This document shows, in pieces, positions 1,569 through 62,634 of a DNA stretch of 64,000 nucleotides (the stretch's first letter is position 1; every line of letters starts with the position of its first letter). Position numbers and translations under genes: made by a program. The notes under the pieces were generated by a model. That model searched no databases and had not been told where the DNA came from. It worked only from the letters and a program-made list of their open reading frames with translations. Source of the stretch: an uncultured virus (IMG/VR IMGVR_UViG_3300028903_000203) (Duplodnaviria; Heunggongvirae; Uroviricota; Caudoviricetes); IMG/VR virus record IMGVR_UViG_3300028903_000203, one strand, 5' to 3'.

Positions 1569-1596
1569 TGGTTTAGTTGGATTTCGCAGTAAAGCA
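1569..1596 (-). repeat. 28-bp dif-like site, copy A
   Basis: Reverse complement is TGCTTTACTGC-GAAATC-CAACTAAACCA, 27/28 identical to copy B at 24832. Confidence 0.75.
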
Positions 1597-1671
1597 TTCA
1601 TTCTGGTACACATCGCAGCATCATCGGGACAACCACGAGGCGGAACAAGGGCTACCAGTACGAGGTGGACA

Positions 1672-3408
1672 ATGGCTACAAACGCATATAATAGAGGACA
1701 ACAGGCCGCACCGGGCGAGCGGTGGAACCTGTGGACGACCTACCAGCTTGCGGCCGAGGTGGGAGGAGCGGGGCGGGCTCCCGAAGAAGCATTCGCCGCC
1801 GCCGTGCGGGTCGTTGTCGAGTGGTTGGACAGTAAGTTTCCCCGGCATTTGCCCTCATGCGCCTACAACCTGGCGGGTTTTGAGCTGGACCACCTCGGTC
1901 TTCAGCACGTCCTGGGTGTGTCGCTGCCCTCGCACGGGGTATGGAGCGTGAGGTTGGTCCACCCGGACGCTCCATTCCAGGGCCACCCCGCCGTCGCGGG
2001 GCGCACCTGGACCACGGAGATCGCCCTGCGGGGCGGACCCAACGGCGTGCGCTTGGCGTTGCGCGTGCTGTGCGCGTCGGCTCCCTATGCGCAGGACCCG
2101 GTAGTGTTGAGCCGGCCACGAGTGATACGCGCTCTCGCCCAGCAGGTTGGTTTATGCGACCTCCGCCGCTTGGACGGGATGCCGTGGATGCTTCAGACGG
2201 AAGACGATCTGACACTACTCTATGAGCTGCTGACCTCACCCCAGCGCACGCTGCCGGTAGTGCTGTTGACTCAGCCAGCGCCGGGGGCCTTGTGGGGCAA
2301 GGTGGCCCCCTATCTACTCGATCACGAGGCTCTGGCCCGAGACTGCCTGGGGCTCGCGCACGTCGCCTGTATGCCCGCCGATCTAGGCTATGACTGGACG
2401 GCGCGGGTGGGCAAAACCTGGTCGGCATTCGCCGGCACGGTGCGCACGTATCAGCCGGGGCTGAACTTTGAGAACGGTGTGCCCTTGGCCCATCCATTGG
2501 TACTCGCGGAGCGCGTCATGTTTTGGGCTCATGAGGATTTAGAGGGAGAGCCCGCCTTTGCCGCCTTTCTAATCAACAAGTTGCAGCGCCAGTCCAACAC
2601 CCGGCCGCTGAATCGCGGGGGGTGTCTATTCATAGCCGATGCCCGCTCGCTGCAAACGACCCTGGAACGGGAACGCATCGAGCGCGAGCTGGGGCAGCGG
2701 GCCAATCTCGATGCCGCTGCCACCCTGCACAGCCAGCTCGAAGCGTTGCAGCGTGCGCATGTGGCCGAGATAGCCGCGCTCAGCGAGCAGATGCGCGAGA
2801 TAGAGGAAGCGCGGGACGTGGCGCTCGAACTCGCGGATGAAGCCGAGGGCGAGCGGGACTTGGCCCAACGGGAGAACCACAACCTCCGTATGCAGAACAC
2901 CGCCCTCCGGCTGGCTCTGGAAGGGAAACAGGGCACCAGCGCCGATGCCGGCATCGCCATTCCCGCAACACTGGCCGAGTTGCCGGAGTGGGTGGAGGAG
3001 CATCTCCCCGGGCGGTTAGTCCTGCATCCCCGGGCGTTGCAGGGGCTAAAGAAATCCACGTATGAGGACGTCGGGCTGGTGTACCAGGCCCTGCTGTTAT
3101 TGGCCCGGGAGTATCGTAACATGCGCCTGGGGGTGGATAGTGAGGCTACCTGGACGGCCCGCCGGAATGAGCTGGGCTTGCAGTTCAGTCGTTCCATTTC
3201 CGATAGCCGCGCAGGCGAGCAAGGTGATACTTACTTCGTAAACTGGCCCCTGGGCAGCAAGCGCCGGGTCTTCGTCGAGCACCACCTGCGTCAAGGGTCG
3301 TCGAAAGAGGAACGGCTCTGCCTGCGCATCTACTTCTTCTGGGATGAGGAGAGCGAGGCGGTGATCGTCGCTTGGTTGCCCAGCCATCTGGAAACGAGGG
3401 CTACCTAG
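1672..3408 (+). CDS. Coiled-coil protein with C-terminal RelE/ParE-like domain (possible defence/toxin protein)
   Basis: 578 aa with a GAGG RBS. Central heptad-rich E/Q/R region; C-terminal HLRQGSSKEERLCLRIYFFWD...VIVAWLPSHL resembles RelE-fold toxin tails. Confidence 0.6.
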   Translation: MATNAYNRGQQAAPGERWNLWTTYQLAAEVGGAGRAPEEAFAAAVRVVVEWLDSKFPRHLPSCAYNLAGFELDHLGLQHVLGVSLPSHGVWSVRLVHPDAPFQGHPAVAGRTWTTEIALRGGPNGVRLALRVLCASAPYAQDPVVLSRPRVIRALAQQVGLCDLRRLDGMPWMLQTEDDLTLLYELLTSPQRTLPVVLLTQPAPGALWGKVAPYLLDHEALARDCLGLAHVACMPADLGYDWTARVGKTWSAFAGTVRTYQPGLNFENGVPLAHPLVLAERVMFWAHEDLEGEPAFAAFLINKLQRQSNTRPLNRGGCLFIADARSLQTTLERERIERELGQRANLDAAATLHSQLEALQRAHVAEIAALSEQMREIEEARDVALELADEAEGERDLAQRENHNLRMQNTALRLALEGKQGTSADAGIAIPATLAELPEWVEEHLPGRLVLHPRALQGLKKSTYEDVGLVYQALLLLAREYRNMRLGVDSEATWTARRNELGLQFSRSISDSRAGEQGDTYFVNWPLGSKRRVFVEHHLRQGSSKEERLCLRIYFFWDEESEAVIVAWLPSHLETRAT

Positions 3409-3528
3409 TTGCGGCAAAGGTAACGCGGCCCGGCACACGTGGGTCGGGAACCGATTCCCGGTGGATTCGTATTACATAGGATAACGCAAGATTGCGTGGG
3501 CGGTCGGCCTGATAGGAGAAGCAAGCCA

Positions 3529-4302: not shown

Positions 4303-4352
4303 TAGGGGGCCAACCGGCCCCCTATTGCACCTGGGCGGGAGAAGTGTACAAT
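4303..4352 (+). promoter_or_regulatory. Array promoter copy 1: palindrome + -35/-10
   Basis: TAGGGGGCC-aacc-GGCCCCCTA, then TTGCAC-N16-TACAAT, upstream of the first array gene. Confidence 0.7.
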
Positions 4353-4393
4353 GAAGCAGACGTGGAAACTAGCAACTGCGGCGGAGAAAAGGC

Positions 4394-6685: not shown

Positions 6686-8271
6686 GCTGCAAAGGTGAGG
6701 CGGAAAAGGAAGCCGGCCAGCTCGAAAACGCCACGCGGATAGCCTTGGGCCAGGCCGACGCGGCGGCGCACTGCATCCACCCCGACTGTGAGGCGCACAT
6801 CAACCAGGCTACGGGACTCTGCACTCGGGGCCACGCCCAGCAGATTCCCGCGCAGGTCGAGCGGGACCCACAGACCTATACGCAGGCCCGCGACTGGGGC
6901 CAAGCCTTTGCCACGTTTCTAAGCACCTATGAGTATGCCTGGGGGCTGCGGAAAGAGGGCGTGCCCTGTGGGTGGAGTACCGGCGGTTGCCAGGTCTTGG
7001 CGGACGCGCTCCAGCTCTGGTTGGGCGAAGAAAACGTTATCCGGAGCATGTTCGCACAGGTGGGGGGCAATCTACCGGAGGGCCCACGAGCCGACCATGT
7101 GGTAACGCGCTGTGGCGTATGGTGTCTTGACGGCCTGGGGATACAGACGGAAGAGGCCCTCGTAGATTTATTTTTGCAGGATAAGGCAGAAGAGTGGGAC
7201 GAGCTGGAGGGTGGGGATGATGTGGGTGATGACTGGGAAGATGGGGAGCATAATCCCGAAAACTACGACTTGGTGCCTTATGACCCAGCAATCTTGGGCA
7301 CTATTCAACGCCAGCCGGAGATTTCCCAACGGCTGGCCGGGCTCTTGGCGCAGCGTTGGGACCGCGACGAGGTGCTGAGGCTACTCGGGACCCGGAGCAG
7401 CTCACGCCAGTTGCCCCTAGCGGTGCGGGACATCCCTCCTGGCCCCGGATTCGCGCGGGTCAACAACGCTGACGCCAACGGCCTACCCAACATCCACACG
7501 GGCGGCGTGTGGCGGAGCCCTGATGGGCGGGAGTACTGGAAGCCGCTCGACGGCCGGCCCTATAGCAACGCCGACTTCCACTTGCCGACGCAGGAAGCGG
7601 AGGCGTTGGAACTCATGGCCGATGTGCCAGGCTTTCCCCGCAACTGGCGGGTCGAGGAAATCCCGGTTGTGGTGGACGGCCAGACCTATACCCGGCGCTG
7701 GCTGGTGCGGGAACAGGTGTGGCCGGTGCCGGCGGAGTATCCCGCTGACCGCTTGCGCCTGGACGACGTGCGGGCTATCGAGGACGGGCTGCGGCGGCTC
7801 AACCAGCGCGGCTGGGGCATCGGCGATCACCTTTCCGTGGCTATAGACCGCCAGCGCCGGCCGCTTATCCTGGACCTCTCGGCGGCCGGCCCCGAGGAAA
7901 ACCCGGCGGCGGACGACACCGACCGCTTCCTGCGCTGGGCCGAGAGCATGGGCTATGGTCGCCTGGTGCAGTTACGGCGGGCCGGCCGGGACCTGACCGA
8001 TATGGCGAGCGCCTATGGTGACCCCCAGTGGCCGCGGGGGGAAGATGGCCGGCCCGACCTGGGCTACGTGCATGTGTATGCTTCACGTAACCGGCCGGCA
8101 GCGGCCACTTGGGTGGATGTGCCGGGCGCGCACTTCCGGGCCGGGGATGTGGCCCAAGAGGGGGTGCATACCTGGGTGGTAACAAAGGAGCCCTTGAGTG
8201 CGGAGCAAATCCAGCGGTTCGATCTCACCTGGGCCTGGAGCCCGGTGCGTTACAGCGGAGGTAGCGAATGA
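6682..8271 (+). CDS. MSC-leader protein; putative Cys-His-Asp (papain-like) domain and kinase-like domain
   Basis: ATGA overlap with the upstream gene; leader motif; GGCQVLADAL...HVV...CLDGLG; YWKP...E.EALE...LRRLNQRGW.IGD...LILDLS. Confidence 0.8.
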   Translation: MSCKGEAEKEAGQLENATRIALGQADAAAHCIHPDCEAHINQATGLCTRGHAQQIPAQVERDPQTYTQARDWGQAFATFLSTYEYAWGLRKEGVPCGWSTGGCQVLADALQLWLGEENVIRSMFAQVGGNLPEGPRADHVVTRCGVWCLDGLGIQTEEALVDLFLQDKAEEWDELEGGDDVGDDWEDGEHNPENYDLVPYDPAILGTIQRQPEISQRLAGLLAQRWDRDEVLRLLGTRSSSRQLPLAVRDIPPGPGFARVNNADANGLPNIHTGGVWRSPDGREYWKPLDGRPYSNADFHLPTQEAEALELMADVPGFPRNWRVEEIPVVVDGQTYTRRWLVREQVWPVPAEYPADRLRLDDVRAIEDGLRRLNQRGWGIGDHLSVAIDRQRRPLILDLSAAGPEENPAADDTDRFLRWAESMGYGRLVQLRRAGRDLTDMASAYGDPQWPRGEDGRPDLGYVHVYASRNRPAAATWVDVPGAHFRAGDVAQEGVHTWVVTKEPLSAEQIQRFDLTWAWSPVRYSGGSE

Positions 8272-9676: not shown

Positions 9677-10999
9677 ATGAGCTGTACCGGGGAGAAGAAA
9701 GAGCAATCAGAGGTCTTGGCGCAGGCATCCCGGATCGCCGGCAGCCAGGTGGATGGGGCAGCCCATTGTTTGCATCCGGGCTGCAACCAACCGCTCAATG
9801 CTGCCCAGGAGTGCTCTCGGGGGCATAGCCAGCACCCTGCTGATGTGGTGCAGGCGCTAATCGCTGGCTGCCAGAAGTGGCGGTCTGAGGAACTACAGCG
9901 GTTGTATGCCAGGGAATGGGGCCAGGGTGATACAGCGTATGGCTGGAGTATCGCGGAGGCGCGAGTCAAAGCAGCGCTAGCCTGGAGCGCAGCGCAGGAA
10001 CTGGACGGGAACGGCGACTTGGCCGCACAGGCCCAGAACGAGGTCGCGTGCCTGGAGCGCATGGACCGCATGCAGGCCGTCCACGCGGCGCATGCCCTGC
10101 TGGACGAGTGCCAAGCTAGCCCCCAGTTCGACGCAGTGGATCGCTTGGTGTTGGGGCAACTGGCGCGCTACTACACGGACGCCCCGCCTGCTGACCCCGC
10201 GCCCATTCTACGCCGGGCCCACACGCGGTTGCAGGGTTTCCGTGACAGTCCGGAGGGGCCGGCCCCGCACCCGGTGGCCTGTGAGCTATTGCGCCAACGG
10301 CTGGCGGAACTGGAAACCTACGATGAAACGCGGGCGCGTCTGACGCGGCAGTATCCACACCAGTTCCCGAGCGAAGACCGTATACTCGCTCACCTCTTCT
10401 TCCAGCCCACTGGCGGTGGCATGGATTGGGAAAACGGGCAGCTCGTGATGAGTTGGCCGACGCCAGACGATGAACTAGAGGAGCGCCGTCAGCACCATGG
10501 TATCTGGCATCCGGGGCAGCTACCTACGGACCCGCGATTGACTGATCTCCCGGCTTACGACCCGGCGGCTCCGCCCCCACTGCTGCGCGCCCCCGTTGAT
10601 GTGACCTCGGATTGGCGAGGGGCGGCCCTGCGTGCTATCGAGCTGGCCCGCAGATTCGGCTGGGCCAACGAGGAGACTCTGGCGGCGGCCGAGTGGCGGC
10701 TCTGGCATCAGGGGCAGGAAAAGCCGCAGAGTGCGATACCCCAAAGAGGTGTCTGGGCGGACGAGGACGACAGCAAGCCGGGGAAGGTAGCACAGGACTG
10801 GCAAAGACTACTACAACGTGAACATGAGCAAAGCGGCGACTGTTGGGACAGCGAATGCGACACCTACGGGCAAGTTCAGGTGCGCGTGGTACGGGGCCAG
10901 GACGGGATCACCTTTGAGGGGCATTGCACGCGCTGTGGTTTCATCGAAGAATGTGACTATGATCCTGACCCCGACCGCGAGGCGCGTGTGCGCTACTAG
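9677..10999 (+). CDS. MSC-leader protein (paralog of 8268)
   Basis: AGGAGG RBS; leader MSCTGEKKEQ; similar to the upstream gene over its full length. Confidence 0.85.
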   Translation: MSCTGEKKEQSEVLAQASRIAGSQVDGAAHCLHPGCNQPLNAAQECSRGHSQHPADVVQALIAGCQKWRSEELQRLYAREWGQGDTAYGWSIAEARVKAALAWSAAQELDGNGDLAAQAQNEVACLERMDRMQAVHAAHALLDECQASPQFDAVDRLVLGQLARYYTDAPPADPAPILRRAHTRLQGFRDSPEGPAPHPVACELLRQRLAELETYDETRARLTRQYPHQFPSEDRILAHLFFQPTGGGMDWENGQLVMSWPTPDDELEERRQHHGIWHPGQLPTDPRLTDLPAYDPAAPPPLLRAPVDVTSDWRGAALRAIELARRFGWANEETLAAAEWRLWHQGQEKPQSAIPQRGVWADEDDSKPGKVAQDWQRLLQREHEQSGDCWDSECDTYGQVQVRVVRGQDGITFEGHCTRCGFIEECDYDPDPDREARVRY

Positions 11000-11009: not shown

Positions 11010-11060
11010 TGGGGGGCAGGTCGGCCCCCTATAGACGCCAGCGCAGCCGGCGTGTACAAT
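11010..11060 (+). promoter_or_regulatory. Array promoter copy 2
   Basis: TGGGGGGC-aggtcg-GCCCCCTA, then TAGACG-N17-TACAAT. Confidence 0.7.
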
Positions 11061-11107: not shown

Positions 11108-12934
11108 ATGAGCTGCAAGGAATACTGGGAACAACAGTTGGCCGGGCCGCTGGCTACCGCCACGCGAGTTGCGCCAGGGCAAGTTGATGGGGCGGAGCGG
11201 TGTGCCCATGAAGGCTGCAACTTGCCCATCAGCCGCGCCACGGGCAAGTGCCCACGGGGACATGCGCCGGCCGGCCAGTCTACACAGGGGGCCCCCACCA
11301 TCACGGCGAGCCTGCTTTGCGTACTGGAGGAAGCCGGCGCTTTCTCTCCGGCCTTCCAGGTCGAGCGGGCGGTGGCGCGCCGCCTGGCCGTAGGTGACGA
11401 GTACGAAGACAGCACCCCCGAAATGCAAGCGGCGGCACAGGTGCTGCTGGATAGAGTCGAGGAACTGGTGGCGTGGGGGGGTATTCTCCGCACGCGCCTC
11501 GACCGCGGGCATTATGATGAAGCGCTCGCCGCCCTGTCCCGGGCCTACGGGGATGAAGAGATGGAGGAGACTGATGTCGTAGCCGCCACCCAGGAGGGCT
11601 TTCTCTCCGACGACGGTACGGTGCGGGCCGCGGCTGGGCCGCTGTGCTATGCGTTGGAGAACCTGCTCGTGCGGCAAATGCTGGAGGATGAAGCGGACAA
11701 GGCCAGCGTCAGCCGGGCATTGGCCCAGGCGTATGGCGCTCCGGAGTTGACTGACGCCCAGGTACTCAGCATAGCCGTGCGGGCCCAATCTGCGGAAGCG
11801 GAGCGGTCGGAGGAACTTGCTACCCAGCGCGCGGACGCGCGCACGTTGCAGGTGGTAATGGCGGGGGGAGCACAGTCGCCGGCCCTCCCCCTGCCCGAGG
11901 AAGACCCGGTGCGCCGGCTTCTATATGAGGTCGATGAGCTGCGTGATGCCGGGACAAACCTGGAGGGTGACCCCCGCGTGCGGGCGGCCCGCGCGTACTT
12001 AGAGGCGCAGGACCGCACCTGGTGGGAGGCCCCCTCGCTGGAAGCGGCGCTGAAAGCATGGCCGGCCGCCCCCAACCAGCTCTTCGAGGAAGCCTTCTAC
12101 CAGGTGACCGGCCGCAGCATCGTCGTGGAATATGACGGGCCGCCGGATGACCCCGCGGCGGAGGACGGTCCCCTGGTGGTAAGCTGGTCCCAGCAGCAGG
12201 GGATAACGGACGCCTCGCTGGAGTTACTGCGGGTGGTGTTCCCCGGCGTGCCGGAGCGGGCCTGGGTGCGGGAAGAGGGCCCCAACGACACCCAAATCTT
12301 TGGCCCCGACGGGCAGCGGGCGCGGGTGCGGGTGGTCACTCCTGATGGGACCCCGGCCGTAACGGCGCTGTTGCCCCATCCCGCCGCGTGCTGGCAAGCG
12401 CTGCAAGCGACCCACCGGCGCAGCGGTATAGTGCGGCCCCCAGACTATACTCAGGTCAGCACGGTGACCAGGTGGCGAGGGGAAGCCTTCACCCAGCTAA
12501 AGCAAGCCGCCTGGGGAACCGTGAAAAAGCGCTACGGGCTGCACCGGCTGCCGCCGCGGAGCGGGCGCGTTGGGGAAAGCGCCTTCCGGGTGCCGGGCCT
12601 CTGGCGCAGCAACAGCGGCATCGAGGCATCGGCGGCCGAGTGGGCGTTGCGTTACGTGTTGGTGGCCGGCGAGGACCCCCCTTTGGCCGGCACCAGCCCC
12701 GCCGATCAGGCCGCCTGGGGCGAGCAGATGTATGCGCGCCTGCGGGAGGTTGATTGGGGGGACGTGCGGGCCTACTTTGGGGTGGACACCCGCCTGCGCT
12801 CCGGACATCGGCCCCTTGGGGAAAGCGCCTTCCGTGTGGAGGGGCTGTGGCAGGACGCGGCGGGCCACACGGGTTCGGCCGCGGAATGGGTCTTGCGCTC
12901 GGTGTTGGTAGATGGGCCAGCCGGTCAGTCATAG
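11108..12934 (+). CDS. MSC-leader protein with duplicated C-terminal GESAFRV.GLW...SAAEW.LR.VLV module
   Basis: AAGGAG RBS; ATG 11108 begins MSCKEYWEQQ. Confidence 0.85.
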   Translation: MSCKEYWEQQLAGPLATATRVAPGQVDGAERCAHEGCNLPISRATGKCPRGHAPAGQSTQGAPTITASLLCVLEEAGAFSPAFQVERAVARRLAVGDEYEDSTPEMQAAAQVLLDRVEELVAWGGILRTRLDRGHYDEALAALSRAYGDEEMEETDVVAATQEGFLSDDGTVRAAAGPLCYALENLLVRQMLEDEADKASVSRALAQAYGAPELTDAQVLSIAVRAQSAEAERSEELATQRADARTLQVVMAGGAQSPALPLPEEDPVRRLLYEVDELRDAGTNLEGDPRVRAARAYLEAQDRTWWEAPSLEAALKAWPAAPNQLFEEAFYQVTGRSIVVEYDGPPDDPAAEDGPLVVSWSQQQGITDASLELLRVVFPGVPERAWVREEGPNDTQIFGPDGQRARVRVVTPDGTPAVTALLPHPAACWQALQATHRRSGIVRPPDYTQVSTVTRWRGEAFTQLKQAAWGTVKKRYGLHRLPPRSGRVGESAFRVPGLWRSNSGIEASAAEWALRYVLVAGEDPPLAGTSPADQAAWGEQMYARLREVDWGDVRAYFGVDTRLRSGHRPLGESAFRVEGLWQDAAGHTGSAAEWVLRSVLVDGPAGQS

Positions 12935-48599: not shown

Positions 48600-48613
48600 A
48601 TAGGAGGTTGGCG

Positions 48614-50623: not shown

Positions 50624-50632
50624 GCGACTATC

Positions 50633-51580: not shown

Positions 51581-51590
51581 GGTTATACCG

Positions 51591-52547: not shown

Positions 52548-52556
52548 GAGGTGGCG

Positions 52557-52793: not shown

Positions 52794-52796
52794 CCC

Positions 52797-54248
52797 ATGA
52801 GCTGTACCGGCGAGAAGAAGGCGCAATCGCAAGCGTTGGCCGCGGCAGCCCGCGTGGCGGGGGACCAGGTGGATGGGGCGCAGCGCTGTATCTACCCGCG
52901 CTGCAACCGGCCCTTGAACACGCAGCAGGAGTGTCCCTGCGGCCACAGCCAGTGTCCCACCGACGTGGCGCGGTCGCTGCTTCTGGAGAGCAGGTCGTGG
53001 CTGAGCAACCGGGGTCAGTCTCTGCTGACTCGGGAACTAGCTGAGGAAGATGCGGCGCTGGCGCGGGCGGTAGCCGCGGAACAGCACGATCTCCTGCTTT
53101 TGGAAGAAGCCGAGAGTGTGCTGGCGCGATTAGCTCTGGACCGGCGGCAGGGGCGGGCGCGGGCTGGGTTGGAGGCCGAATTGGAGCGGGCGCACCCCGA
53201 CTCGCGCTGGTTCTGCCGCATTGTCGGTGCGCACGCGCTCGAGGTGTGGCGCAATGAACAGGTGGCCGGAATGGCCAGTCTGCTCGACGCGGAGGCGGTT
53301 ATCCAGCACCGGCTGGATGTGGACAGGCTGCTGGAGAATCTAGCGTTGGACCCGGCGATGGCTGCGGCCCAGAAACAAGCGCGGCTGGCCGCACCTGCCA
53401 ACCAACGCCGGGTAACGCTGCGGGCCGAGCGGCGCGCGTGGTCGCTGGCCGATCCCCACCGCCCAGTCATCGACTATCTGGAACGGCTGCCGACCGGCAG
53501 CACCATGACTGTGGTGGAAGCAGCCGTGGCGGGGTGGCCGGAGGCCGAAGCCTTGCGGGGCCAGTGGACGGCGGTAGAAACGCCGGACCTCGGGCGGGTC
53601 TGGGTGCCCCTGGGCGAGCCCCCCGGCCGGCCGGACTACCGGCTCACCCGGGACTTTGGCTTGTTGGGCGAGGTGACCAACCGGGTTAGCGATGCCCTGG
53701 AGGTGGGACCCGACCTCGACCCCACGGACGTACGGGAGCGAGTGCGGCGCGCTGATTACAATGCTGTGCTGCTGGAAGTGCGCCGAGAGATAGAGCATGA
53801 CCAGGCCGACGAGCGGGAGATTGACATAATACTAACGGGCATGCGAAGGAGCCCGGTCGCCACAACCGAGGAGATGCTGCAACGCCTGCATGATGAGCAG
53901 GGGGCTCCGCCACCGCCCGAGGTGTGGGCGGCCCTGGGCCGGCTCGAGACGCTGGTGCAAGCGCTGCGCGAGCGGCTGGAACAGGGCACCCCGCCAGTGG
54001 AGTGCCGGCTGGCGTGGCAGCGGCGGCTGGCCTGGGTGCGGTCCATCCAGCGCCACAACCTACCGGACGTGCGGCGGGAACTGGAAGAACGCGGGCTGGC
54101 CGCAGACCGCTGGAGCTGGCGCAGCAACCTGACGGGGATCGAGGGCATGCTTCGCTGGGTGCTGGCACGGGATGCCGATTTGCGACTGGGGGACGCGGAG
54201 ATGCACCCGCCGGTGGAGGACGCTGCCAGGGCTAGCCCAAGGGAGTAA
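52797..54248 (+). CDS. MSC-leader protein, unknown cargo
   Basis: GAGGAG RBS; MSCTGEKKAQ leader. Confidence 0.85.
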   Translation: MSCTGEKKAQSQALAAAARVAGDQVDGAQRCIYPRCNRPLNTQQECPCGHSQCPTDVARSLLLESRSWLSNRGQSLLTRELAEEDAALARAVAAEQHDLLLLEEAESVLARLALDRRQGRARAGLEAELERAHPDSRWFCRIVGAHALEVWRNEQVAGMASLLDAEAVIQHRLDVDRLLENLALDPAMAAAQKQARLAAPANQRRVTLRAERRAWSLADPHRPVIDYLERLPTGSTMTVVEAAVAGWPEAEALRGQWTAVETPDLGRVWVPLGEPPGRPDYRLTRDFGLLGEVTNRVSDALEVGPDLDPTDVRERVRRADYNAVLLEVRREIEHDQADEREIDIILTGMRRSPVATTEEMLQRLHDEQGAPPPPEVWAALGRLETLVQALRERLEQGTPPVECRLAWQRRLAWVRSIQRHNLPDVRRELEERGLAADRWSWRSNLTGIEGMLRWVLARDADLRLGDAEMHPPVEDAARASPRE

Positions 54249-54253
54249 ACCAT

Positions 54254-54304
54254 TAGGGGGCCGGTTGGCCCCCTATAGACAACGCTGGCCGGGGCCGATA
54301 CAAT
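54254..54304 (+). promoter_or_regulatory. Array promoter copy 4
   Basis: TAGGGGGCC-ggtt-GGCCCCCTA, then TAGACA-N17-TACAAT. Confidence 0.75.
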
Positions 54305-54333
54305 GAGAAGCAGCAATTTGGAGGAGAACGGTC

Positions 54334-56496
54334 ATGAGCTGTAAGAACTTCTGGGCCCAGGAAATTGCCGGCCGTCTGCAAGGTACTGCGCGGGTGGCGG
54401 CCGGCCAGGTGGATGGCGCAGCGCGCTGCACCCATGAGGGTTGCGACGCCCTCGTGAACCTGGCGACCAACTGCTGCGTGCGCGGCCATGCCCAGGGACC
54501 GATGCATGGGGTTGCCTATGCTACTGCCCTGGCCGGCGCGCTGGCCTGCGCAGCGCGCGAGGCAGTGCAGCGGGGGCAGGTGGAAGTCACACCAGCGGTG
54601 GAGCAACTACTACGCACCGACACCGAGCACCGGGTACGTGAGCTGCTTGGGCAGGAGCGGGTTGCCGCCGAGCTGCGCACCGCCGACCGCGTGACGGTGC
54701 TTAGCCTGCGGGACCGGGTCCAGGTCGTGACCCGTTCCGATACGGTTCAGACCAACTTCATGCAGGAACGGGCCGGCGCATTGCACGTCGAGGAAGAGCA
54801 TTTCGGGAACTATGACCTCTCCAGGCGGTCAGCCGACATCGTGGACGACTACGTGGCCGCCCGCCTCCGGCGGGGCTGGCGGGAGCACTGCCGGCTGTGT
54901 GGCCAGTTCCTGCCGGACGAGGGGGAGCATACCTGCCCAGAGGGGCGGGACGAAGCTGCCGAGGCCGCACAGACTATCCAGACGGCCATGCATGTCTTGG
55001 GTGACCTCGATGCTCGGGCGAAGCGACACGACCCACGGGTGCAGGCCGGCCGGGCCTATCTTGCCGCGAGGGCGGTGAGTGCCACCCCGACAGATGCGCC
55101 CGCCCCCGCGCTGCCGGCGGCGGAACACCTGGCGTTTCTGCAAAGGGAGATCATGACGGCAGGCGACAGCGACGTGTTCGAGGACTATGAGCTTGACGAG
55201 GCCATGATGGCCCAGGTGGAGCAGGACGTGAACCAGGCGATCTCCGGCGTCACAACTCCTACCCTGGCTGGCTCCCTCCGTTACTTCTTGGACGAGGTGC
55301 TGGAGCCTTTCCAGGAGAGCGGCTTATTTGAATCCTACGCGAGCGAAGACCCCGATTATAGCGACAAATGGGTGACGGCCCTGGACGAGGTGCGCCGGTA
55401 TCTGGGGGACGCAGTGCCCATTTCCCGGCCCCTGCCCCGCGCGGGGGTACTCGACGCGCTGGGGCAGGCTGTCAAGCAAGCAAAGACGGACCTGGGGCGC
55501 ATTATGCCCCAGGTTGAGCCCAGCGGCGACCGCGAGCAGCCCGGTTGGCAGACTATCAAGGAACTCCAACGGGCGCTCCGGGCGTATGAGCGGAAGCCGC
55601 AGTCCATGGCGGCGCAGACAGCGCTGCTGGCCGCGGCCCGTTGTGCGGACGCCGACCTCCAGGGCATCATGCCGGAGTTCGAGCCCAGCGGTGACAAAGA
55701 AGACGAGGGCTGGCGCACGCTGCGCGACCTGGGCCGGGCCATCCGGGATGCAGAGCTGAGTCCGCCCATCGTCGAGCAAGAGTATGACGGCGACCTGGGG
55801 AATGCCCCTATCGCGGAGATGGCAGCGCAGCAAACACCCGATGCTCCGCCCGTGCTGCTCCAGGAGAAGGAGGGCAGCCAGAGCATGCTGCTCGTCAACA
55901 TCAACGGACAGGGTGTAGCGGCCCACATCCTGGATGATGGCGTCATCCTGGACTTGGCCGGCTACGACACCAAGACGGCGGCTGAGGGGTACGGCGGTGG
56001 TCTGGTCTACCTGGCCCTGGAGGAGGACGGTACTCCGTTTCTGTACGTCTGGGCGGATCGCGGTGAGGAGGACCCCACGCACATTATCGGTCTGGGAGGG
56101 GCCGCAGAGCGTTACCGCGTCTTGGAAGAGGACGAGCCGGCAGGGGAGGTTACCCGCGGGCGGCCTTGGCACGAGGCTGATCCGGCTGCGCCGGGGCGCG
56201 GGCAGGTGGTAGCGTTAACGGGGCGGGATGAGCCCCCCGCCGTAGCCACGCGCTGGGACAACGAGCAAGCCGGGGCCGTGAGTATTGAGCCCAACGGCGT
56301 GTCCCTGGATGTGCGCGGGTACGGCACCGCCGCGATGGCTCCTGGTTATGGCGGCGGCATTGTTCACCTGGACTTGTTCCATCCGAAGGCCCCCGTTCTG
56401 CTGGTGTGGGCGGACGTCAACTATGAGGAACCCACCCACCGCATTCCCTTAGCTGGCGCGCGGGAACCGCGCGCGAAAAGTAGGAGGCGCCAATGA
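54334..56496 (+). CDS. MSC-leader mosaic protein with duplicated C-terminal LD..GY...GGG.V.L...VWAD...PTH.I.L domain
   Basis: GGAGGAG RBS; MSCKNFWAQE; also a duplicated DL..IMP..EPSGD.E..GW.T motif. Confidence 0.85.
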   Translation: MSCKNFWAQEIAGRLQGTARVAAGQVDGAARCTHEGCDALVNLATNCCVRGHAQGPMHGVAYATALAGALACAAREAVQRGQVEVTPAVEQLLRTDTEHRVRELLGQERVAAELRTADRVTVLSLRDRVQVVTRSDTVQTNFMQERAGALHVEEEHFGNYDLSRRSADIVDDYVAARLRRGWREHCRLCGQFLPDEGEHTCPEGRDEAAEAAQTIQTAMHVLGDLDARAKRHDPRVQAGRAYLAARAVSATPTDAPAPALPAAEHLAFLQREIMTAGDSDVFEDYELDEAMMAQVEQDVNQAISGVTTPTLAGSLRYFLDEVLEPFQESGLFESYASEDPDYSDKWVTALDEVRRYLGDAVPISRPLPRAGVLDALGQAVKQAKTDLGRIMPQVEPSGDREQPGWQTIKELQRALRAYERKPQSMAAQTALLAAARCADADLQGIMPEFEPSGDKEDEGWRTLRDLGRAIRDAELSPPIVEQEYDGDLGNAPIAEMAAQQTPDAPPVLLQEKEGSQSMLLVNINGQGVAAHILDDGVILDLAGYDTKTAAEGYGGGLVYLALEEDGTPFLYVWADRGEEDPTHIIGLGGAAERYRVLEEDEPAGEVTRGRPWHEADPAAPGRGQVVALTGRDEPPAVATRWDNEQAGAVSIEPNGVSLDVRGYGTAAMAPGYGGGIVHLDLFHPKAPVLLVWADVNYEEPTHRIPLAGAREPRAKSRRRQ

Positions 56497-57716
56497 GCTG
56501 CAAAGACTCTTGGGAAAAGGAAATGGCGGGCCGGCTGCAAAACGCCAGCCGCATCGCGGCCGGCCAGGTGGACGGCGGGCAGCGCTGTACCCGGCCAGGC
56601 TGCGACGCCCTGGTGAATCGGGCGACCGGGCTGTGCGTCAAGGGGCACCGCCAGGACGTGACCGCCGCAGGCTATCCCCGTGAGTTGGATGCCCTGCTGT
56701 GTGTGGCAGAGGAGCTCCAGGCGCAGGGCCGGTTGTCGGAGGAAGACGAGGGCACCGTAGCGGTTGTCCAGGACTTCCGTAGTATGGCTCAAGATGGTGA
56801 CGCTGGAACCGGCGACGATGTGGCCGAACAAGGGTCCGCTTCCGTGCTTGATCTCCTGAATCTGGTGGAGCGGATGGAACACGAACTTGACCCGGCCGCG
56901 AGCGCCGCTCTGCATGACGATGCCCGCACGCGGGCCGGGCGGGACTTTCTACAAGCCGCGGTACTGGCAGAACTGAAAAGGGCGCTGGGGGAAGGCCGGG
57001 AGCCCCCTGCCGCAGAGCTACCCCGCGATCAGCACGGCCATCTGGTGGACGCGGCGGGCAAGCCCGTCACCGATCCCTACGGGCATTTGACCTGGTGCCT
57101 GGGCACCAGCGATGATTTTGTCTGCCTGGATTATCACGTAGACCCCGAGCATGATGTCGTGGTCCTGCACGCGGCGGTCAATAGCGAGACCGGCGGCTTT
57201 GTGGACGACTTCTCCTATATCGAGGTGCCTCGGGCGGAGGCCGCCGAAACAGCGCAAGGACTCGTCGACCAGGCTATGCAGTGGGCCTGGGACAACGAGC
57301 TGCGCCGCCCGGCCTTGAAGGAACCCGCGCGCCGCTTCCTGGCATCATTACGGCGTGAGTTGCGGACCGTGCAGCCCGCTGCTCCGGCCCGCGCTACCCA
57401 GCCTGCGGGGGAAGTGCCGCCGGCCGCCAGCGGCATTATTCACCGCGACTGGAACCCGACCGGCGATAGCATGGAGGACTTGCTGGCCGAAGGCGGAGGC
57501 ACCTTGCCTTACGACCGGGCCGGCTATCCGGTCATCTACCTGACCGCAGACGGCACCGAGCTATGCGCGAGCTGCGCGATGGATGATTTGCGATTGCCAC
57601 CAGGCGAAGACCAGGGGGTGCAAGGTTATCGGCTGCTGGACGAGCCGGGACTCACTTCTGAGTGCGCTGAATGCGGCTACGAGTTCGCATACGAAGGCGA
57701 AGAAGATGAGGAATAG
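56493..57716 (+). CDS. MSC-leader protein with C-terminal GYP..Y...DG..LCxxC...CxxC Zn finger
   Basis: ATGA overlap; MSCKDSWEKEM leader. Confidence 0.85.
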   Translation: MSCKDSWEKEMAGRLQNASRIAAGQVDGGQRCTRPGCDALVNRATGLCVKGHRQDVTAAGYPRELDALLCVAEELQAQGRLSEEDEGTVAVVQDFRSMAQDGDAGTGDDVAEQGSASVLDLLNLVERMEHELDPAASAALHDDARTRAGRDFLQAAVLAELKRALGEGREPPAAELPRDQHGHLVDAAGKPVTDPYGHLTWCLGTSDDFVCLDYHVDPEHDVVVLHAAVNSETGGFVDDFSYIEVPRAEAAETAQGLVDQAMQWAWDNELRRPALKEPARRFLASLRRELRTVQPAAPARATQPAGEVPPAASGIIHRDWNPTGDSMEDLLAEGGGTLPYDRAGYPVIYLTADGTELCASCAMDDLRLPPGEDQGVQGYRLLDEPGLTSECAECGYEFAYEGEEDEE

Positions 57717-57778
57717 GCACTGAACTGTAAAGACCAGTGGGCAAAGGCCCGCCAAGTAGCAGGCATTGGAGGCAAACC

Positions 57779-58825
57779 ATGTCATGCAAGGACTTCTGGG
57801 CTCAGGAAATGGCGGGCCGGCTGCAAAACGCCAGCCGGATCGCGGCCGGGCAGGTGGATGGCGCGCAGCGCTGTACCCGTGAGGGCTGTGATGCTTTGAT
57901 AAACCGGGCCACCGGGCGCTGCGTGCGCGGTCACGCGCAGCAGGGGCGCGGCCTGACGCAGCCCTTGGCTATGCCTATCGTCGAGGCGCTGGCCTGCTAC
58001 AACCGGGAACAACGAGCCGCGCAAGGTCTGCCCGTAGGTGTAGGTCCGGGCCACTATGAGGACACCCGAGTGCTCCTGGCCCAGTACGCCTTAGCCCGTT
58101 CCTTGGGCGATACCGCCGACCAGATGTGGGTGGGCCGCGCCTGGGATGGGGCCAACAACACGCTGACTAAGTGGTTCTTGCGGGGTGTATCCCGTGAAGC
58201 GGCGGAGACGCTGCTCAGGGAGCAGGGGCAGAACATCGGGGCAGCCGGACATCTGCTGGAACCAGCCCCCGAGTTTCTGGCCCGCGCCGTGCCGGGCTAT
58301 GGCTTGGCCGTGCCAAGAGGGGATGCTGCCGTCGTGGAGTGGGAACAGGCGGCGGTGCAGGCGATGCTGCACCTGGCCGAGGAGGAAACGGCCCCCGAAA
58401 CGGACGAGGCGGCCGACCCCCGCATCCAAGCGGGGCGGGCCTATTTGGCTGCCACGACCGGGCCGGCGGGCGACCAGTTTGAGGGGGACAACGCGCTGGT
58501 CCGTGGCGGGGTGCGGGTGGCATGGGAGGACCTCGGCGAAGGGCTGGATGGAGAGTACAACGAGGACGACCCCAACGACGTCCCCCTCCTGCGCTTCAAC
58601 GTCTATCGCCGGGACTCCGCCACAGCAGCTTGGGAAGAAGTCGAGCACGCCTCCTACTGCACGCGCATGCCGGCGGAGGCGGGTTCGGTGGCGAAGCGGC
58701 GCGGGCTGGAAATCTTGATGAACCGCTTCTATGATGCAGTGGTGGCTGACGATGGGGAAGCGGAGAACATCGCGGAGGAGCTGTCCTGGATTGGGCCAGA
58801 TGACGTGCTGGAACAGCAGCGGTAG
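57779..58825 (+). CDS. MSC-leader protein with acidic GEG.DGEY..DDP.D.PLLRF...SYCT domain
   Basis: GGAGG RBS; MSCKDFWAQEM leader. Confidence 0.85.
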   Translation: MSCKDFWAQEMAGRLQNASRIAAGQVDGAQRCTREGCDALINRATGRCVRGHAQQGRGLTQPLAMPIVEALACYNREQRAAQGLPVGVGPGHYEDTRVLLAQYALARSLGDTADQMWVGRAWDGANNTLTKWFLRGVSREAAETLLREQGQNIGAAGHLLEPAPEFLARAVPGYGLAVPRGDAAVVEWEQAAVQAMLHLAEEETAPETDEAADPRIQAGRAYLAATTGPAGDQFEGDNALVRGGVRVAWEDLGEGLDGEYNEDDPNDVPLLRFNVYRRDSATAAWEEVEHASYCTRMPAEAGSVAKRRGLEILMNRFYDAVVADDGEAENIAEELSWIGPDDVLEQQR

Positions 58826-58961
58826 GGCACCAATCTACAACCGGCGGAGCCACGTTCACCGTTATCCCATCCTAACCGCAGAAGGTCTGCGCTTGGCTAG
58901 GGAATTGGAGGAGTCGGGCGAGGGGGTGGACCTTGTGAATCACCGTCGACAGGAGAAGTGA

Positions 58962-60974
58962 ATGAGCTGCAAAGACTTCTGGGAAAAAGAGATGGCGGGC
59001 CGGCTGGAAGGCCCGAGCCGGGTAGCTCCGGGCCAGGTAGATGGCGGCCAGCGCTGTGACCATGCAGGCTGCCCCGCCCTGGTGAACTTGGCTACCAATG
59101 CCTGCGTGCGGGGGCATGTCCAGGGTGGGACCGGGATGCGCCCCTACCCCGCGGAAGTTGATGCCTTGTTCTGCGCGGTCGAGGAACTGCAAGCGCAGGG
59201 ACGGCTGGCGGCGGACGACCCAGCGTGGCAACGACTACAAGAGTTCCGCCGCCAGGCCGAAACAACGGCTCCCGGCGCACGGGAAACGCAGGAGACGCTG
59301 GGTGATCTCCTCGACTTGATAGAGCAAGAGGAGCTGGCCCTGGGCGACGACCCGGCGGCGCAAGACCTGCACGACGACCCGCGTGTGCGGGCCGGCCGCG
59401 CAGCGTACTATGAGGACGTGCAGGCAGAGCTGGGGGGACGCCCCTGCATCCAGCCGGGCTGCGGCCAGCGGGTCAATCCGGTGACGGCGAAATGCGGCCG
59501 GGGGCACGTGCAGTTCTATGCCGACCGCGAGGGGTGGGACGACGCGCCCACCGCGGGCGGAGGTATCCGGACGGAAGTGGACTTCATGCGCTTCCAGATG
59601 CTCACCACAGGCGTTGACGACGACCAGGTGAGACACAACGACCGGCAGGCGATCAGCACTTACTTGCGGCAGTGCCTGGGCGATGCGGAGGCCGATCCAC
59701 TGGCCTTGTCCCGCGCCAAAGAGCTGGTGGACCTCCTGCGCCAGCGTGTCCCCAACCCGGAGCGCAACATTCCCCGCCACTTGCGGCGGCTAATGGCCCG
59801 GGTAGACGCGCAGGGGCAGGCCGCGGGGGTCGCTAGCGCGGCGGAAGCACCCGCCGTGCAGTATGTGCGGGAACTACTGGCCGAAGACGGCTTGCTGCAA
59901 GCGGACGGGAGTGTGGTACTCGGCGACGCTGAGCGCCGCAGGCAGTTCTGGACTGACATGCTAAGCGCCCCAAATCTGGTGGACCGGGCCGGGCTCCAGG
60001 GCTTTGCGGAATACGACTACTCCAAAGATGCGGCGGGAAACACCGAGTTGAAGGTGTGGATCATCCATGAGCGCGGGCCGGGCCTGACGACAAACCAGCG
60101 GCGGTGGCTGGCCTATGAAGGGCACCTGCCCCCCCAGGACCACTGGAGCGCGGCAGAGATAGCGGACCGGGTGACAACCATCCAGCAGCAAGTCCAGGCC
60201 CAAGTCGATGCCCTGCGGGCGGGGACCATTGTGCCCTTGCCGGTGGTCGAGCGGAACGTAGAATCCGACTTGGGCTATGCCCCGGTGTGCCGGCTAGCCG
60301 CCGGGTTGGCTCCGGGGGACTCGCCGGTGCTCTTGCACGAGACCGAAGGAGGGTATAGCGTCCTGCTGGCTAACGTCAACGACCAGCCGGTGGGGGTGGC
60401 TTTTGTCGAGGACGGGCTGATCATCGATCTGGCCGGGTATGCCCATGCGGGGGTAGCGGCCGACTTCGGCGGGGGGGTGGTCGCTATTGGAGTGCAAGAC
60501 AGTGAGAACGAGGACGCTGAACCTAGCGTAGGCGTGTGGGCGGACCGCACCCAGAAGAAGGCAACCCACGAAATCACGTTGGCGGACGCAAGTGAGGGTT
60601 TGCGCCGGCAGCAGGAGGAGGGGGTCGCCAGCGCCACACCGCCCTGGGGCCGGGCCGACCGCCTGGCTCCGCGCTGGGTGCAACCCGTGCCCGGAGCTAG
60701 CGTGGGTGATCCTCCCGCCGTGGTAGCACGGTATGAGCAGCGCGTAGCGGCGGTAACCATTGGTCCAACCGGGATGGCCTTCGACATCCAGGGCTATGGT
60801 ACAGCAGCCGCGCGGGCCGGCGGGGAAGGCGGGATAGTCTACCTTGATTTGGCAAACCAGGCAGAGGGCCCCGTGCTGCTGGTGCGGAGTAAGATCAATC
60901 AGCAGGACGCGACGCACCGTATCCCGCTCGCGGGGGCGCGTATTCCGCCCCCGCGCACCAGGAGGCGTAGATGA
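58962..60974 (+). CDS. MSC-leader mosaic protein: internal second leader Zn finger; C-terminal duplicated domain shared with 54334
   Basis: AGGAG RBS; MSCKDFWEKEM; both proteins end THRIPLAGAR.P...RRR. Confidence 0.85.
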   Translation: MSCKDFWEKEMAGRLEGPSRVAPGQVDGGQRCDHAGCPALVNLATNACVRGHVQGGTGMRPYPAEVDALFCAVEELQAQGRLAADDPAWQRLQEFRRQAETTAPGARETQETLGDLLDLIEQEELALGDDPAAQDLHDDPRVRAGRAAYYEDVQAELGGRPCIQPGCGQRVNPVTAKCGRGHVQFYADREGWDDAPTAGGGIRTEVDFMRFQMLTTGVDDDQVRHNDRQAISTYLRQCLGDAEADPLALSRAKELVDLLRQRVPNPERNIPRHLRRLMARVDAQGQAAGVASAAEAPAVQYVRELLAEDGLLQADGSVVLGDAERRRQFWTDMLSAPNLVDRAGLQGFAEYDYSKDAAGNTELKVWIIHERGPGLTTNQRRWLAYEGHLPPQDHWSAAEIADRVTTIQQQVQAQVDALRAGTIVPLPVVERNVESDLGYAPVCRLAAGLAPGDSPVLLHETEGGYSVLLANVNDQPVGVAFVEDGLIIDLAGYAHAGVAADFGGGVVAIGVQDSENEDAEPSVGVWADRTQKKATHEITLADASEGLRRQQEEGVASATPPWGRADRLAPRWVQPVPGASVGDPPAVVARYEQRVAAVTIGPTGMAFDIQGYGTAAARAGGEGGIVYLDLANQAEGPVLLVRSKINQQDATHRIPLAGARIPPPRTRRRR

Positions 60975-62605
60975 GCTGCAAAGACTTCTGGGAAAAAGAA
61001 ATGGCCGGCCGGCTACAAGATGCCAGCAAGGTAGCTCCCGGCCAGGTGGATGGCGCGCAACGCTGTGTTGTGCCGGGCTGCAACGAGCTGGTGCAGCAGA
61101 ACACCCAACGTTGTGTGAAAGGCCATGTGCAGGGCCGGCGGCCAGCGCCAGACCGGGCGAGAATGCTGGTAGACGCGCTGCGCTGCTATGTTGAGGAGCG
61201 GCTACGAGCCCAAGCAGGGGGCATTGCCGCCGTCAGCAGCCCGATGTCGCTGACAGCCGCAGGCATCGCCTTCGCCTGCTATGCGCGGGACCATGAGCAG
61301 CCCGGTTGGAAAAGGACTGGTGTGCAGACCATGCTGCGCATAGCGGAGCGAGAAGCAGCCCAGAGCCCGCCGGGCACCCCGCCCGACCCGCGCGTGCAGG
61401 CTGCGCAGCAGTATCTCGCGGATACGGCGGAGCCTACGGGCGCTGCCGCTACGGCGGGCCCGGATATAGCCGCGTGGCAGATGGAGCGGGCTGCGGCGGC
61501 CATGCGCGACCCCACCTACCAACGGCTGATAGCGGGAGCCGAGCAGGCCCATTTGTACTGGGCCGCCCGCGCCAATTACACGCCGCCCCTGGGATTGTAT
61601 CTCTGGGTGCGCCGCGGCAACCGCCTGGGAAGTGCGCGCTATGACGAGGCCCATGGTTGGTGGGTGGGCGATGAGGTGGAGCCTGGCGCAGGTGCCACCA
61701 TAGCGATGGCCGCGCAAGTCGCTGCCGCCCGCGAAAGGGGTGTCCTGGTAGCCGAGCATTGTCCTGTGTGCGGGCGGATTGTGGCCGCCGCGGGGGGGCA
61801 TGTTTGTCCGGGCCAGATCACCGACGACTTGCATGGGCCGCTGTCCGATATGCTGATCGCCCTACTGCGACCATTCGAGGAAGATGGCGGGGCCGAGGGC
61901 TTTGTTGACGATGAAGATCGCTGGCACGCGGCGGTCCAGGACCTGGAGCGGGCGCTGGCGGGGGAGCCGCGTCCTGGTTTGGCCGCCTCACTCCGCTGGC
62001 TGCGGGACGAGGTGCTGGCGCTGGCGGGGGAGAGCGATATGCTGCGGGAGCGTCTGCTGCGCAATGCCGATGAGGAAGACTTCATCCACTATGAGGGGAA
62101 CCACGAGCAGGCGCTGTGGGCGGTGCGTAGGTATCTGGAGGGGGTGGAGAAAGAGCTGGCCGCGCCCGTAGTAGTAGAGGCCGCCGCGCCCGTAGAGCCG
62201 CCTCCCGCATACCGCAGCGTGACGCCGGAAACCACGGCCCGCGAGATCGCGCTGGCCGGCGGAGTAATCTCTTGGCCTGCGCCGTCACGCCAACGGCGAG
62301 GCAAGGGCAAATTGGCACAAGCCGCTGCCGTCGCGCCGGCCGTCACGGCGGAGCAATCCCTGGCGGACGTGCTGCGGGCCGGAGGGCGGGTGACCTTTCC
62401 GGACGGCTCGTGGATCGAGGGCCGTCCCAGCAACCAACCCCCGCGTCTCAATTATCGGGAACCGACCCACCCCCAACCGGATGACTACTCCACGTCATTT
62501 GTGTGGTGGGAGTTGGGGCCAGAGACCGTCATTACCGCTTTGCAGCGACTGGAAGGGGACCGCTTGCTCGCAGACAGGTGGGCGGCCCGCAAGAGCAAGC
62601 CGTAA
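60971..62605 (+). CDS. MSC-leader mosaic protein with HCxxCG...HxCP finger
   Basis: ATGA overlap; shares LA.SLR...DEVL...AL..VRRYL with 54334. Confidence 0.85.
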   Translation: MSCKDFWEKEMAGRLQDASKVAPGQVDGAQRCVVPGCNELVQQNTQRCVKGHVQGRRPAPDRARMLVDALRCYVEERLRAQAGGIAAVSSPMSLTAAGIAFACYARDHEQPGWKRTGVQTMLRIAEREAAQSPPGTPPDPRVQAAQQYLADTAEPTGAAATAGPDIAAWQMERAAAAMRDPTYQRLIAGAEQAHLYWAARANYTPPLGLYLWVRRGNRLGSARYDEAHGWWVGDEVEPGAGATIAMAAQVAAARERGVLVAEHCPVCGRIVAAAGGHVCPGQITDDLHGPLSDMLIALLRPFEEDGGAEGFVDDEDRWHAAVQDLERALAGEPRPGLAASLRWLRDEVLALAGESDMLRERLLRNADEEDFIHYEGNHEQALWAVRRYLEGVEKELAAPVVVEAAAPVEPPPAYRSVTPETTAREIALAGGVISWPAPSRQRRGKGKLAQAAAVAPAVTAEQSLADVLRAGGRVTFPDGSWIEGRPSNQPPRLNYREPTHPQPDDYSTSFVWWELGPETVITALQRLEGDRLLADRWAARKSKP

Positions 62606-62606
62606 A

Positions 62607-62634
62607 TGCTGTACTGCGAAATCTAAGTAAAGCA
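62607..62634 (+). repeat. 28-bp dif-like site, copy D
   Basis: TGCTGTACTGC-GAAATC-TAAGTAAAGCA, 25/28 identical to copy B; 1 bp after a stop codon. Confidence 0.7.

Follow-up and report, generated by a model that had tools for sequence, protein, structure and literature searches.

Four 28-bp elements with Xer-site geometry, one overlapping the gene of an Xer-like tyrosine recombinase, in a gene array of an uncultured virus

Introduction

We describe here four copies of a 28-bp DNA element found in a 64,000-nucleotide stretch of DNA (hereafter the window) from an uncultured virus of the Caudoviricetes (IMG/VR record IMGVR_UViG_3300028903_000203). The copies, termed sites A to D in the order of their positions, lie between the genes of a long array, and one of them, site B, overlaps the end of a gene for an Xer-like tyrosine recombinase (Table 1). 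A preliminary description of the window, made from its letters and open reading frames (ORFs) alone, had drawn attention to these copies and taken them for dif-like sites that could allow large blocks of the array to be rearranged. We analyse below the sites, the enzyme and the surrounding genes, compare them with public assemblies and known site-specific systems, and weigh the explanations that they admit. The one we favour, with a confidence that stands at about even, is that the four elements are core sites of the local recombinase.

Table 1. Coordinates of the sites and neighbouring features in the window
Feature	Position	Strand	Remarks
Site A	1569-1596	-	TGCTTTACTGCGAAATCCAACTAAACCA; 27/28 identical to B
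Site B (reference copy)	24832-24859	+	TGCTTTACTGCGAAATCCAACTAAAGCA; outer 7-bp inverted repeat perfect, in B alone
Site C	45081-45108	-	TGCTTTAGTGCGAAATCCAACCAATCCA; 24/28 identical to B, 25/28 to A
Site D	62607-62634	+	TGCTGTACTGCGAAATCTAAGTAAAGCA; 25/28 identical to B, 24/28 to A, 21/28 to C
Xer-like tyrosine recombinase, 380 aa	24852-25994 (longest ORF to 26093)	-	Pfam Phage_integrase, 2.5e-30
Small ORF, 106-109 aa, four hydrophobic segments	24488-24817	-	downstream of B on the recombinase strand
Orphan protein, C-terminus like two ribbon-helix-helix motifs	2-1471	+	candidate DNA binder
HEC-07-family candidate defence protein	1672-3408	+	PADLOC PDLC04161, 3.4e-117, profile 25-553/553; first gene of the A-B block
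Perfect sigma-70-type promoter-like site, TTGACA-17-TATAAT	1538-1566	-	12/12, best in the window; 2 bp from A

Sequence and architecture of the four sites

A search of the window with the consensus retrieved site B exactly, site A with one mismatch and site D with three, while site C, which has four mismatches to the consensus, was confirmed by a script. All four were thereby re-found at the positions and on the strands first assigned to them, and the identities given for them in the preliminary description (27/28 for A and B, 25/28 for both A and C and B and D) proved correct on recomputation. None of 100 dinucleotide-preserving shuffles contained any match with up to three mismatches. Within the window no further copy was detected at up to nine mismatches, nor with the outer half-sites placed around a variable spacer of 10-18 nt, and outside the four sites there is a single occurrence of the heptamer TAAAGCA or its complement, at 12498.

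Each copy consists of two inverted arms of ~11 bp around an asymmetric, AT-rich centre of 6 bp, which is the geometry of an Xer-type core site. The arms are, as first described, imperfect inverted repeats, with 6-8 of 11 positions matching; in site B the outer half-sites, TGCTTTA and TAAAGCA, form a perfect 7-bp inverted repeat. The centre GAAATC, whose asymmetry is confined to the middle AA, is the same in all four copies, and the invariant block really extends over 9 bp (TGCGAAATC). The eight substitutions among the copies all fall outside this block; by our own arithmetic, eight substitutions would spare a given 9 of 28 positions with a chance of ~0.045. Similarity between the copies stops after 28-37 bp and their flanks are unrelated, as fits a site recognized by a protein and not a segmental duplication. 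The four sites are real, and we regard it as almost certain that they are functional elements of the DNA.

Intergenic DNA, computed after re-setting the gene starts to the Met-Ser-Cys start shared by the array genes, makes up ~2.8 kb of the 64 kb (~4%), and all four sites lie inside it. Site A sits in the 200-nt gap between the orphan gene at the beginning of the window and the HEC-07-like gene; site B holds the TAG stop codon of the recombinase gene and overlaps the last 8 nt of that gene; site C directly follows the TAA of the gene 43425-45080, with 26 nt between the site and the ATG at 45135; site D lies 1 nt after the TAA of the gene 60971-62605, with 30 nt left to the ATG at 62665. This agrees with the initial observations that every copy sits at a gene boundary, two of them right after stop codons and one across the stop codon of the recombinase, and the start-to-start distances of 23,263, 20,249 and 17,526 bp likewise match the reported spacing of about 17-23 kb. 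The small membrane-protein ORF that B precedes by 15-24 nt has a GC content by codon position (0.63/0.51/0.80) like that of the real genes of the window; as it lies on the - strand, B too occupies a short gap between two co-directional genes. The statement that the array genes are all on the + strand is at odds with this ORF and with the recombinase gene itself.

The orientation of the sites had been described as alternating. In absolute coordinates this holds (-, +, -, +; strict alternation of four sites has a chance of 1/8), but when the sites are read along local transcription the split is 3:1, with a common polarity (..TTGGATTTCGCA..) in A, B and C and the opposite one in D, the absolute alternation being partly due to the location of B in a - strand operon. 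Four sites are too few to give either pattern statistical meaning. Paralogue subtypes of the array genes are mixed across all the blocks delimited by the sites, and the latter thus do not separate gene subfamilies; a block-level duplication was rejected on the same grounds.

The recombinase and its linkage to site B

The protein encoded beside site B is matched by the NCBIfam models XerA_Arch (1.1e-39), XerC (3.2e-39) and XerD (2.3e-33), in each case well below the curated cutoff, and its best matches among solved structures are XerA-like 4a8e, XerD, XerA and XerH. Eight relatives aligned with the enzyme (A3) all keep its residues R191, K215, H290, R293, H316 and Y325; with its six catalytic residues conserved, the enzyme looks catalytically intact and active. 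It is nevertheless very divergent: its nearest relatives are 33-37% identical (best of 98 matches among 5.8 billion proteins) and the best plasmid match is 28.9% identical. At its C-terminus it bears a private acidic tail of ~40 aa, which ends inside site B. This is the sole recombinase in the 64 kb, and it is the very gene whose stop codon B overlaps: with ~46 gaps and four sites we estimate the chance of such an adjacency at roughly 0.1-0.2.

Several further features were noted around the recombinase gene. Its control region, located between it and the divergent gene 26492-27205, has promoter-like sites on both strands and contains a 39-nt AT-rich palindrome (26100-26138), unrelated in sequence to the 28-bp sites, along with two CATAATTGCGC direct repeats; the region 26091-26147 is likely to be an operator. 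The gene 23226-24491, which frames the recombinase locus, has a sub-threshold CoiA nuclease-like domain (E 0.0033), and the product of 26492-27205 has a hydrophobic N-terminus followed by a sub-threshold match to a DPBB lytic-transglycosylase fold (E 0.11).

Public assemblies and a fifth copy

Six public runs contain part of the window, and the contigs of four of these (X1-X4) were placed on 43500-63499, the part that includes sites C and D. Only the arrangement of the window was seen in them, with no recombinant junction. One contig of 45,341 nt, present in X1 and X2, runs that may come from the source sample, matches 43500-52871 with no differences and hence crosses C; a secondary piece of the same contig (record 39840-39916) falls exactly at the place that colinearity with the window assigns to 12956-13032, and its differences agree with this paralogue (65 of 77 letters identical), so that the contig reaches ~7,500 and also crosses B. 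Contigs of 2,841 nt in X1 and X2, and one of 400 nt in X4, span site D. The window's arrangement is therefore crossed at C, and by colinearity at B, in two of the four runs, and at D in three. The contigs break at the repeated 5' ends of array genes (52844-52871, 56522-56547, 57808-57833 and 60964-60990) and at none of the sites, and C and D contain no joint among the 11 listed and no loose end among the 23 listed. Two observations were given no weight: a joint in X4 (43661 to 45195) which passes over C with only 21 letters on one side and an end that is not at the site, and a listed contig of X3 that ends 9 nt past D at a depth of 3.1. The inversion, excision or import of ~20-kb blocks envisaged at the outset finds no counterpart in these contigs. 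What they show is that, at 32-72x depth, the arrangement of the window is the dominant one; since contigs drop rare variants, these data argue only against frequent switching, and the system looks quiescent or rare in the sampled populations.

A fifth copy of the element came to light at a loose end of X1 and X2 at 54273, where a contig shares the GC hairpin at 54251-54273 and then continues, outside the window, into ATTGGTGATGCTTTAGTTGGAAATCGCAGT. This copy is identical at 20 of 22 positions to the reverse of B, and its two differences turn GATTTC into GAAATC. The invariance of the core, part of the original account, thus holds for the four copies of the window but not for this one from the same metagenomes, in which the central AA/TT is flipped: the arms do not strictly determine which way the centre points.

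A separate peculiarity of the 45-kb contig is a piece that falls exactly at the place of 9677-9750 but was reported as identical to 47094-47167, although the two stretches of the window are identical at only 61 of 74 positions. This could reflect gene conversion between paralogues, an assembly chimera or a quirk of the reporting.

Searches for the sites and the array in other genomes

A strict pattern of the site with 21 fixed bases had no matches in the genome contigs of 185,579 species genomes or in the IMG/VR viral contigs, and a pattern of the outer palindrome was equally without matches in the IMG/VR viral contigs. A looser pattern with 18 fixed bases returned six metagenome loci, which we reject as chance matches: they are 19-21/28 identical to B with 18 positions enforced, range in GC content from 34 to 55%, and several of them lie inside ORFs. 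Inspection by eye, with no family search made, revealed no recombinase-like ORF among the printed ORFs of the six loci.

A search with the N-terminal module of the array genes (alignment A2; see below) gave no relatives in the genome contigs and two hits in the viral contigs. One of these (L008) is a 13-residue match that we regard as spurious; the other (L007) is real, and is not accompanied by the site. A further alignment (A4) yielded no relatives, the recombinase alone retrieved no loci, and a tblastn search with one array protein found nothing in phages or plasmids. L007 is a 7.5-kb IMG/VR contig with a gene start at 7434-7565 whose module is 70% identical over 44 aa; this gene is divergent from a tail module with a tape-measure protein (1223-3445, 1.5e-91). 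There are thus hints that the array gene family travels with tailed phages.

The array and its neighbouring genes

The array in which the sites lie is in itself a more unusual feature than the sites: nearly all of its genes, with 36 gene starts in 4394-64000 and a further one at 33523, share an N-terminal module of ~55 aa (MSCK..GQVDG..RC..GC..C.RGH.Q), behind which the C-termini are unrelated. An AF2 model of the module displays a helix followed by a Cys/His zinc-ribbon-like fold (pLDDT ~90 for residues 30-50). Only four of the C-termini match Pfam at E<=0.001, three above the cutoffs (ArdC-N, DUF6573 and SWIM) and the fourth, a kinase-like domain, 0.1 bit under its cutoff. A profile of the module recovers 111 representatives among 1.84 billion protein clusters, and nine of the ten homologues of one array member are encoded on the window's own 449,756-bp contig. 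The module could be a common targeting or packaging tag. A second motif recurs 600-900 nt into many of the array genes (e.g. 11961-11996, 27719-27754 and 36634-36669; DNA ..GACCCCCGCGTGCGGGCGGC..); it reads GDPRVRAAR and suggests a second shared domain.

Four modules made up of a GC hairpin (GGGGG..CCCCCTA) directly before TAGAC(A/G)-17-TACAAT, with the hairpin overlapping the -35 position, are found at ~4303-4380, 11020-11060, 27270-27317 and 54251-54304, and at 4303 the hexamer TAGACA is replaced by TTGCAC. These modules probably lie where array operons begin, and none of them adjoins a 28-bp site. The promoter-like site next to A (Table 1) points away from A, antisense into the 3' end of the upstream gene, and no ORF of note lies downstream of it. 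The product of that upstream gene has no homologue except itself in 5.8e9 proteins; it matches RHH_1 with E 6.4e-4 (20.0 bits against a cutoff of 20.5), its second ribbon-helix-helix motif having been read by eye. On the other side of A, the first gene of the A-B block gives a full-length match to HEC-07, a candidate for anti-phage defence whose RNase domain is RelE-like (bioRxiv 10.1101/2024.01.29.577857).

Comparison with known site-specific systems

The closest parallel to the recombinase and site B is offered by the single-recombinase Xer modules. A review of Xer systems places xerS immediately beside difSL as a single module; the XerS/difSL and XerH/difH systems, and some of the XerA/dif ones, have gene and site tightly linked, and a gene with an adjacent site is considered a likely hallmark of such modules (PMC5357621). 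The 8-nt overlap of the recombinase gene with B corresponds to this arrangement, as does the form of the site: XerS/difSL, XerH/difH and XerA/dif also couple an Xer-family gene with an imperfect palindrome that has ~11-bp arms and a short centre. Those modules have one site per replicon, at the terminus, whereas we find at least five copies and no switch in skew; moreover, our site is unrelated to the arms of difSL and difH (PMC5357621). Likewise, the enzyme scores below every NCBIfam Xer cutoff and is <=37% identical to anything in 5.8e9 proteins. That the enzyme and the site are both private, the latter being absent from the three collections scanned, fits a co-evolved pair.

The pdif sites of Acinetobacter Rep_3 plasmids show the same deployment of several 28-bp sites of 11-6-11 layout per replicon, in alternating orientation and bounding gene modules; their recombination needs identical or near-identical spacers and yields inversions and deletions (PMC13141974). 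The differences are several. The pdif sites are served by the host XerC/XerD and resemble the chromosomal dif, neither of which applies here as far as this can be tested: in our comparison the arms agree with the printed site ATTTCGTATAA-CGTGTA-TTATGTTAATT at 2/11 and 2/11 positions. Their spacers differ between the sites of the one tabulated plasmid, whereas all four are identical in the window; of the two examples given, one is a backbone module of 3.27 kbp and the other a plasmid of 10,025 bp that holds six modules, against blocks of 17-23 kb with about a dozen genes each in the window; and the movement of pdif modules is documented (PMC13141974), whereas none was seen in the contigs studied here. 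The label 'dif-like' originally attached to the 11-6-11 sites is therefore apt for their geometry and for the kind of enzyme, but not for their sequence or for a chromosomal role.

Two other systems invite comparison. In the R64 shufflon the gene for the Rci tyrosine recombinase lies at the edge of a set of inverted sfx sites, each with one conserved and one variable arm; these sites are located within coding sequence and exchange the C-terminal exons of a single gene, giving a constant N-terminus with variable C-termini. A dedicated tyrosine recombinase gene at the edge of the set, short inverted sites with one well-conserved and one variable arm, and genes with a shared N-terminus and variable C-termini are common to both. 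In the window, however, all four sites are intergenic, and with an N-terminal module already present in every array gene, recombination would create no new fusions. The integron similarly combines an Xer-related tyrosine recombinase with a promoter-poor gene array whose sites lie just after stop codons. The attC sites of integrons are folded structures of 57-141 nt, in one orientation and one per cassette, whereas the sites here are of 28 bp, in mixed orientation and without significant folding; the site of the window also stands at the 3' end of the recombinase gene and not at its 5' end as in the integron, and the integron-integrase model TIGR02249 scores the recombinase at 55.6 bits against a cutoff of 265, which speaks against its being an integron integrase.

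Proposed mechanism and alternative explanations

The sites, their geometry and placement, the intact recombinase and its linkage to B are directly established; from them we infer binding, the positions of cleavage and any rearrangement as follows. Each site would comprise two arms bound by the recombinase around a 6-bp crossover region, and B together with the recombinase gene would be a module of the single-recombinase Xer type. Further compatible sites, with the same centre and set in short gaps inside operons, would be A, C and D and, beyond the window, at least one more copy. Two monomers of the recombinase would bind each site, and paired sites would exchange strands across GAAATC. The expected outcomes can be derived from the established behaviour of tyrosine recombinases and from the pdif sites with identical spacers documented in the account cited above (PMC13141974): the inverted pairs A/B, B/C and C/D would invert the 17-23 kb between them, and the direct pairs A/C and B/D would delete or excise 38-44 kb. 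As A, B and C share their polarity with respect to transcription, an exchange between them would join an upstream operon to a different downstream block while the genes remain co-directional; D, which lacks this polarity, stands outside the set. An inversion between A and B, for instance, would place the HEC-07-like gene and the first block behind the recombinase gene. That blocks are actively shuffled in this way we consider doubtful. We also hold it unlikely that the locus is a self-contained system in which a private recombinase and at least five sites of identical centre swap ~20-kb operon tails in a zinc-ribbon-tagged array.

A number of observations weigh against the elements being recombination sites. 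Besides the lack of recombinant junctions in the contigs and of contig breaks at the sites, the searches of the genome and viral contigs supplied no related element for a comparison of synteny, and all three blocks have the same gene orientation. The fifth copy shows that the centre can be flipped with respect to the arms. All four sites end, on the + strand, in the same 7 nt, TAAAGCA, whatever the orientation of the core, whereas the first 7 nt hold five of the substitutions; this conservation tracks the direction of the genes and not that of the core, and hints at some other constraint. The position of A, 2 bp upstream of the -35 element of a perfect promoter, is a typical one for a regulator, and the arms share little with the printed pdif site, lacking also its ATAA/TTAT inner dyad.

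Several of these points would be explained if the sites were operators or roadblocks for a DNA-binding protein other than a recombinase that tunes transcription in the long operons, an alternative which we judge rather unlikely. The constancy of TAAAGCA, the tolerance of a flipped centre in the fifth copy and the perfect outer inverted repeat of B are in line with it, as are the promoter beside A and the candidate ribbon-helix-helix protein encoded 98 nt from that site, although the latter's match is under the Pfam cutoff. A promoter-like site is, however, near only one of the four sites; C and D leave just 26-30 nt before the next start codon, and the array has its own promoter modules, which bear another conserved hairpin and of which none adjoins a site, weakening the operator alternative. 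Further, the centre is both the least symmetric and the best conserved part of the element, where palindromic operators usually show the opposite, and its half-sites are 21 bp apart from centre to centre, a long distance for a dimeric regulator. It is also conceivable, albeit unlikely, that only B still functions, as the site at which its replicon resolves multimers or integrates, while the remaining copies, the fifth included, are cryptic or decaying secondary sites that past events left behind and that play no part today. Perfect outer symmetry and contact with the recombinase gene are found in B alone, and identity to it declines from 27 through 25 to 24 of 28 positions in A, D and C; the absence of rearrangement in the contigs of the four runs and the single site of the known one-recombinase modules (PMC5357621) point the same way. 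Yet all four copies retain an identical 9-bp centre although the intergenic DNA that flanks them is unrelated, and every copy is precisely intergenic; simple integration would give direct repeats and not interleaved inverted ones, and with no skew switch B is not a classical terminus dif.

We consider it improbable that the sites are miniature palindromic repeats of the REP type scattered between the genes of the replicon, with one of them beside the recombinase gene by chance. They are indeed short imperfect palindromes that occur just after stop codons inside operons in either orientation, at least one more exists outside the window, and a density of about one per 16 kb is REP-like. The RNA hairpins that they could form are nonetheless weak and no better than those of shuffles (z of -1.92 to +0.55 over eight folds, seven of which are within +/-0.7), and the substitutions that distinguish the copies do not keep the pairing intact; the window yielded no gene of HUH/RAYT type, and AT-rich sites with a conserved asymmetric centre are unlike REPs. 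Least probable, in our estimation, is that these are true pdif-type sites used by the host chromosomal XerC/XerD. The 11-6-11 layout, the alternation in absolute coordinates and the identical spacers would fit the description of pdif in Acinetobacter plasmids (PMC13141974), but a dedicated recombinase sits on one of the sites and the arms scarcely resemble those of pdif. Where the host Xer proteins had initially been allowed as an alternative to the local recombinase, the lack of sequence likeness to dif and of a sign change in GC skew at B makes XerCD an unlikely enzyme.

Other candidates were tried and rejected. An RNA element is contradicted by the folds and by the absence of any Rfam match. 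Terminal inverted repeats of a transposon, with A/B or C/D as the ends, do not agree with each site being a palindrome in itself, nor with the absence of a target duplication; by Pfam and PHROGs there is no transposase in the window. Tandem integration of the IMEX-like kind leaves direct repeats, yet the direct pairs A/C and B/D interleave. A dif at a replication terminus is at variance with a GC skew that stays positive through 32/32 2-kb bins and does not change at B; to the left and right of B almost every gene is on the + strand, and there are four copies in 64 kb rather than a single terminus copy.

Implications

We return to the favoured reading of the four elements as core sites of the local recombinase. 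If they are inactive or regulatory, the locus is an ordinary module of a recombinase and its site with a few look-alike sites. If the self-contained system outlined above is real, each exchange among A, B and C would re-assign which block is read from which promoter, and a logic like that of pdif modules or of the shufflon would operate on whole multigene blocks with an enzyme of its own. Were the sites active, this would be module shuffling of the pdif type with its own recombinase, moving blocks of about a dozen genes; it would extend Xer-based gene mobility beyond Acinetobacter plasmids and the host XerCD, and would offer a way into an array that is otherwise hard to interpret, with its 36 or more genes sharing one N-terminal module.

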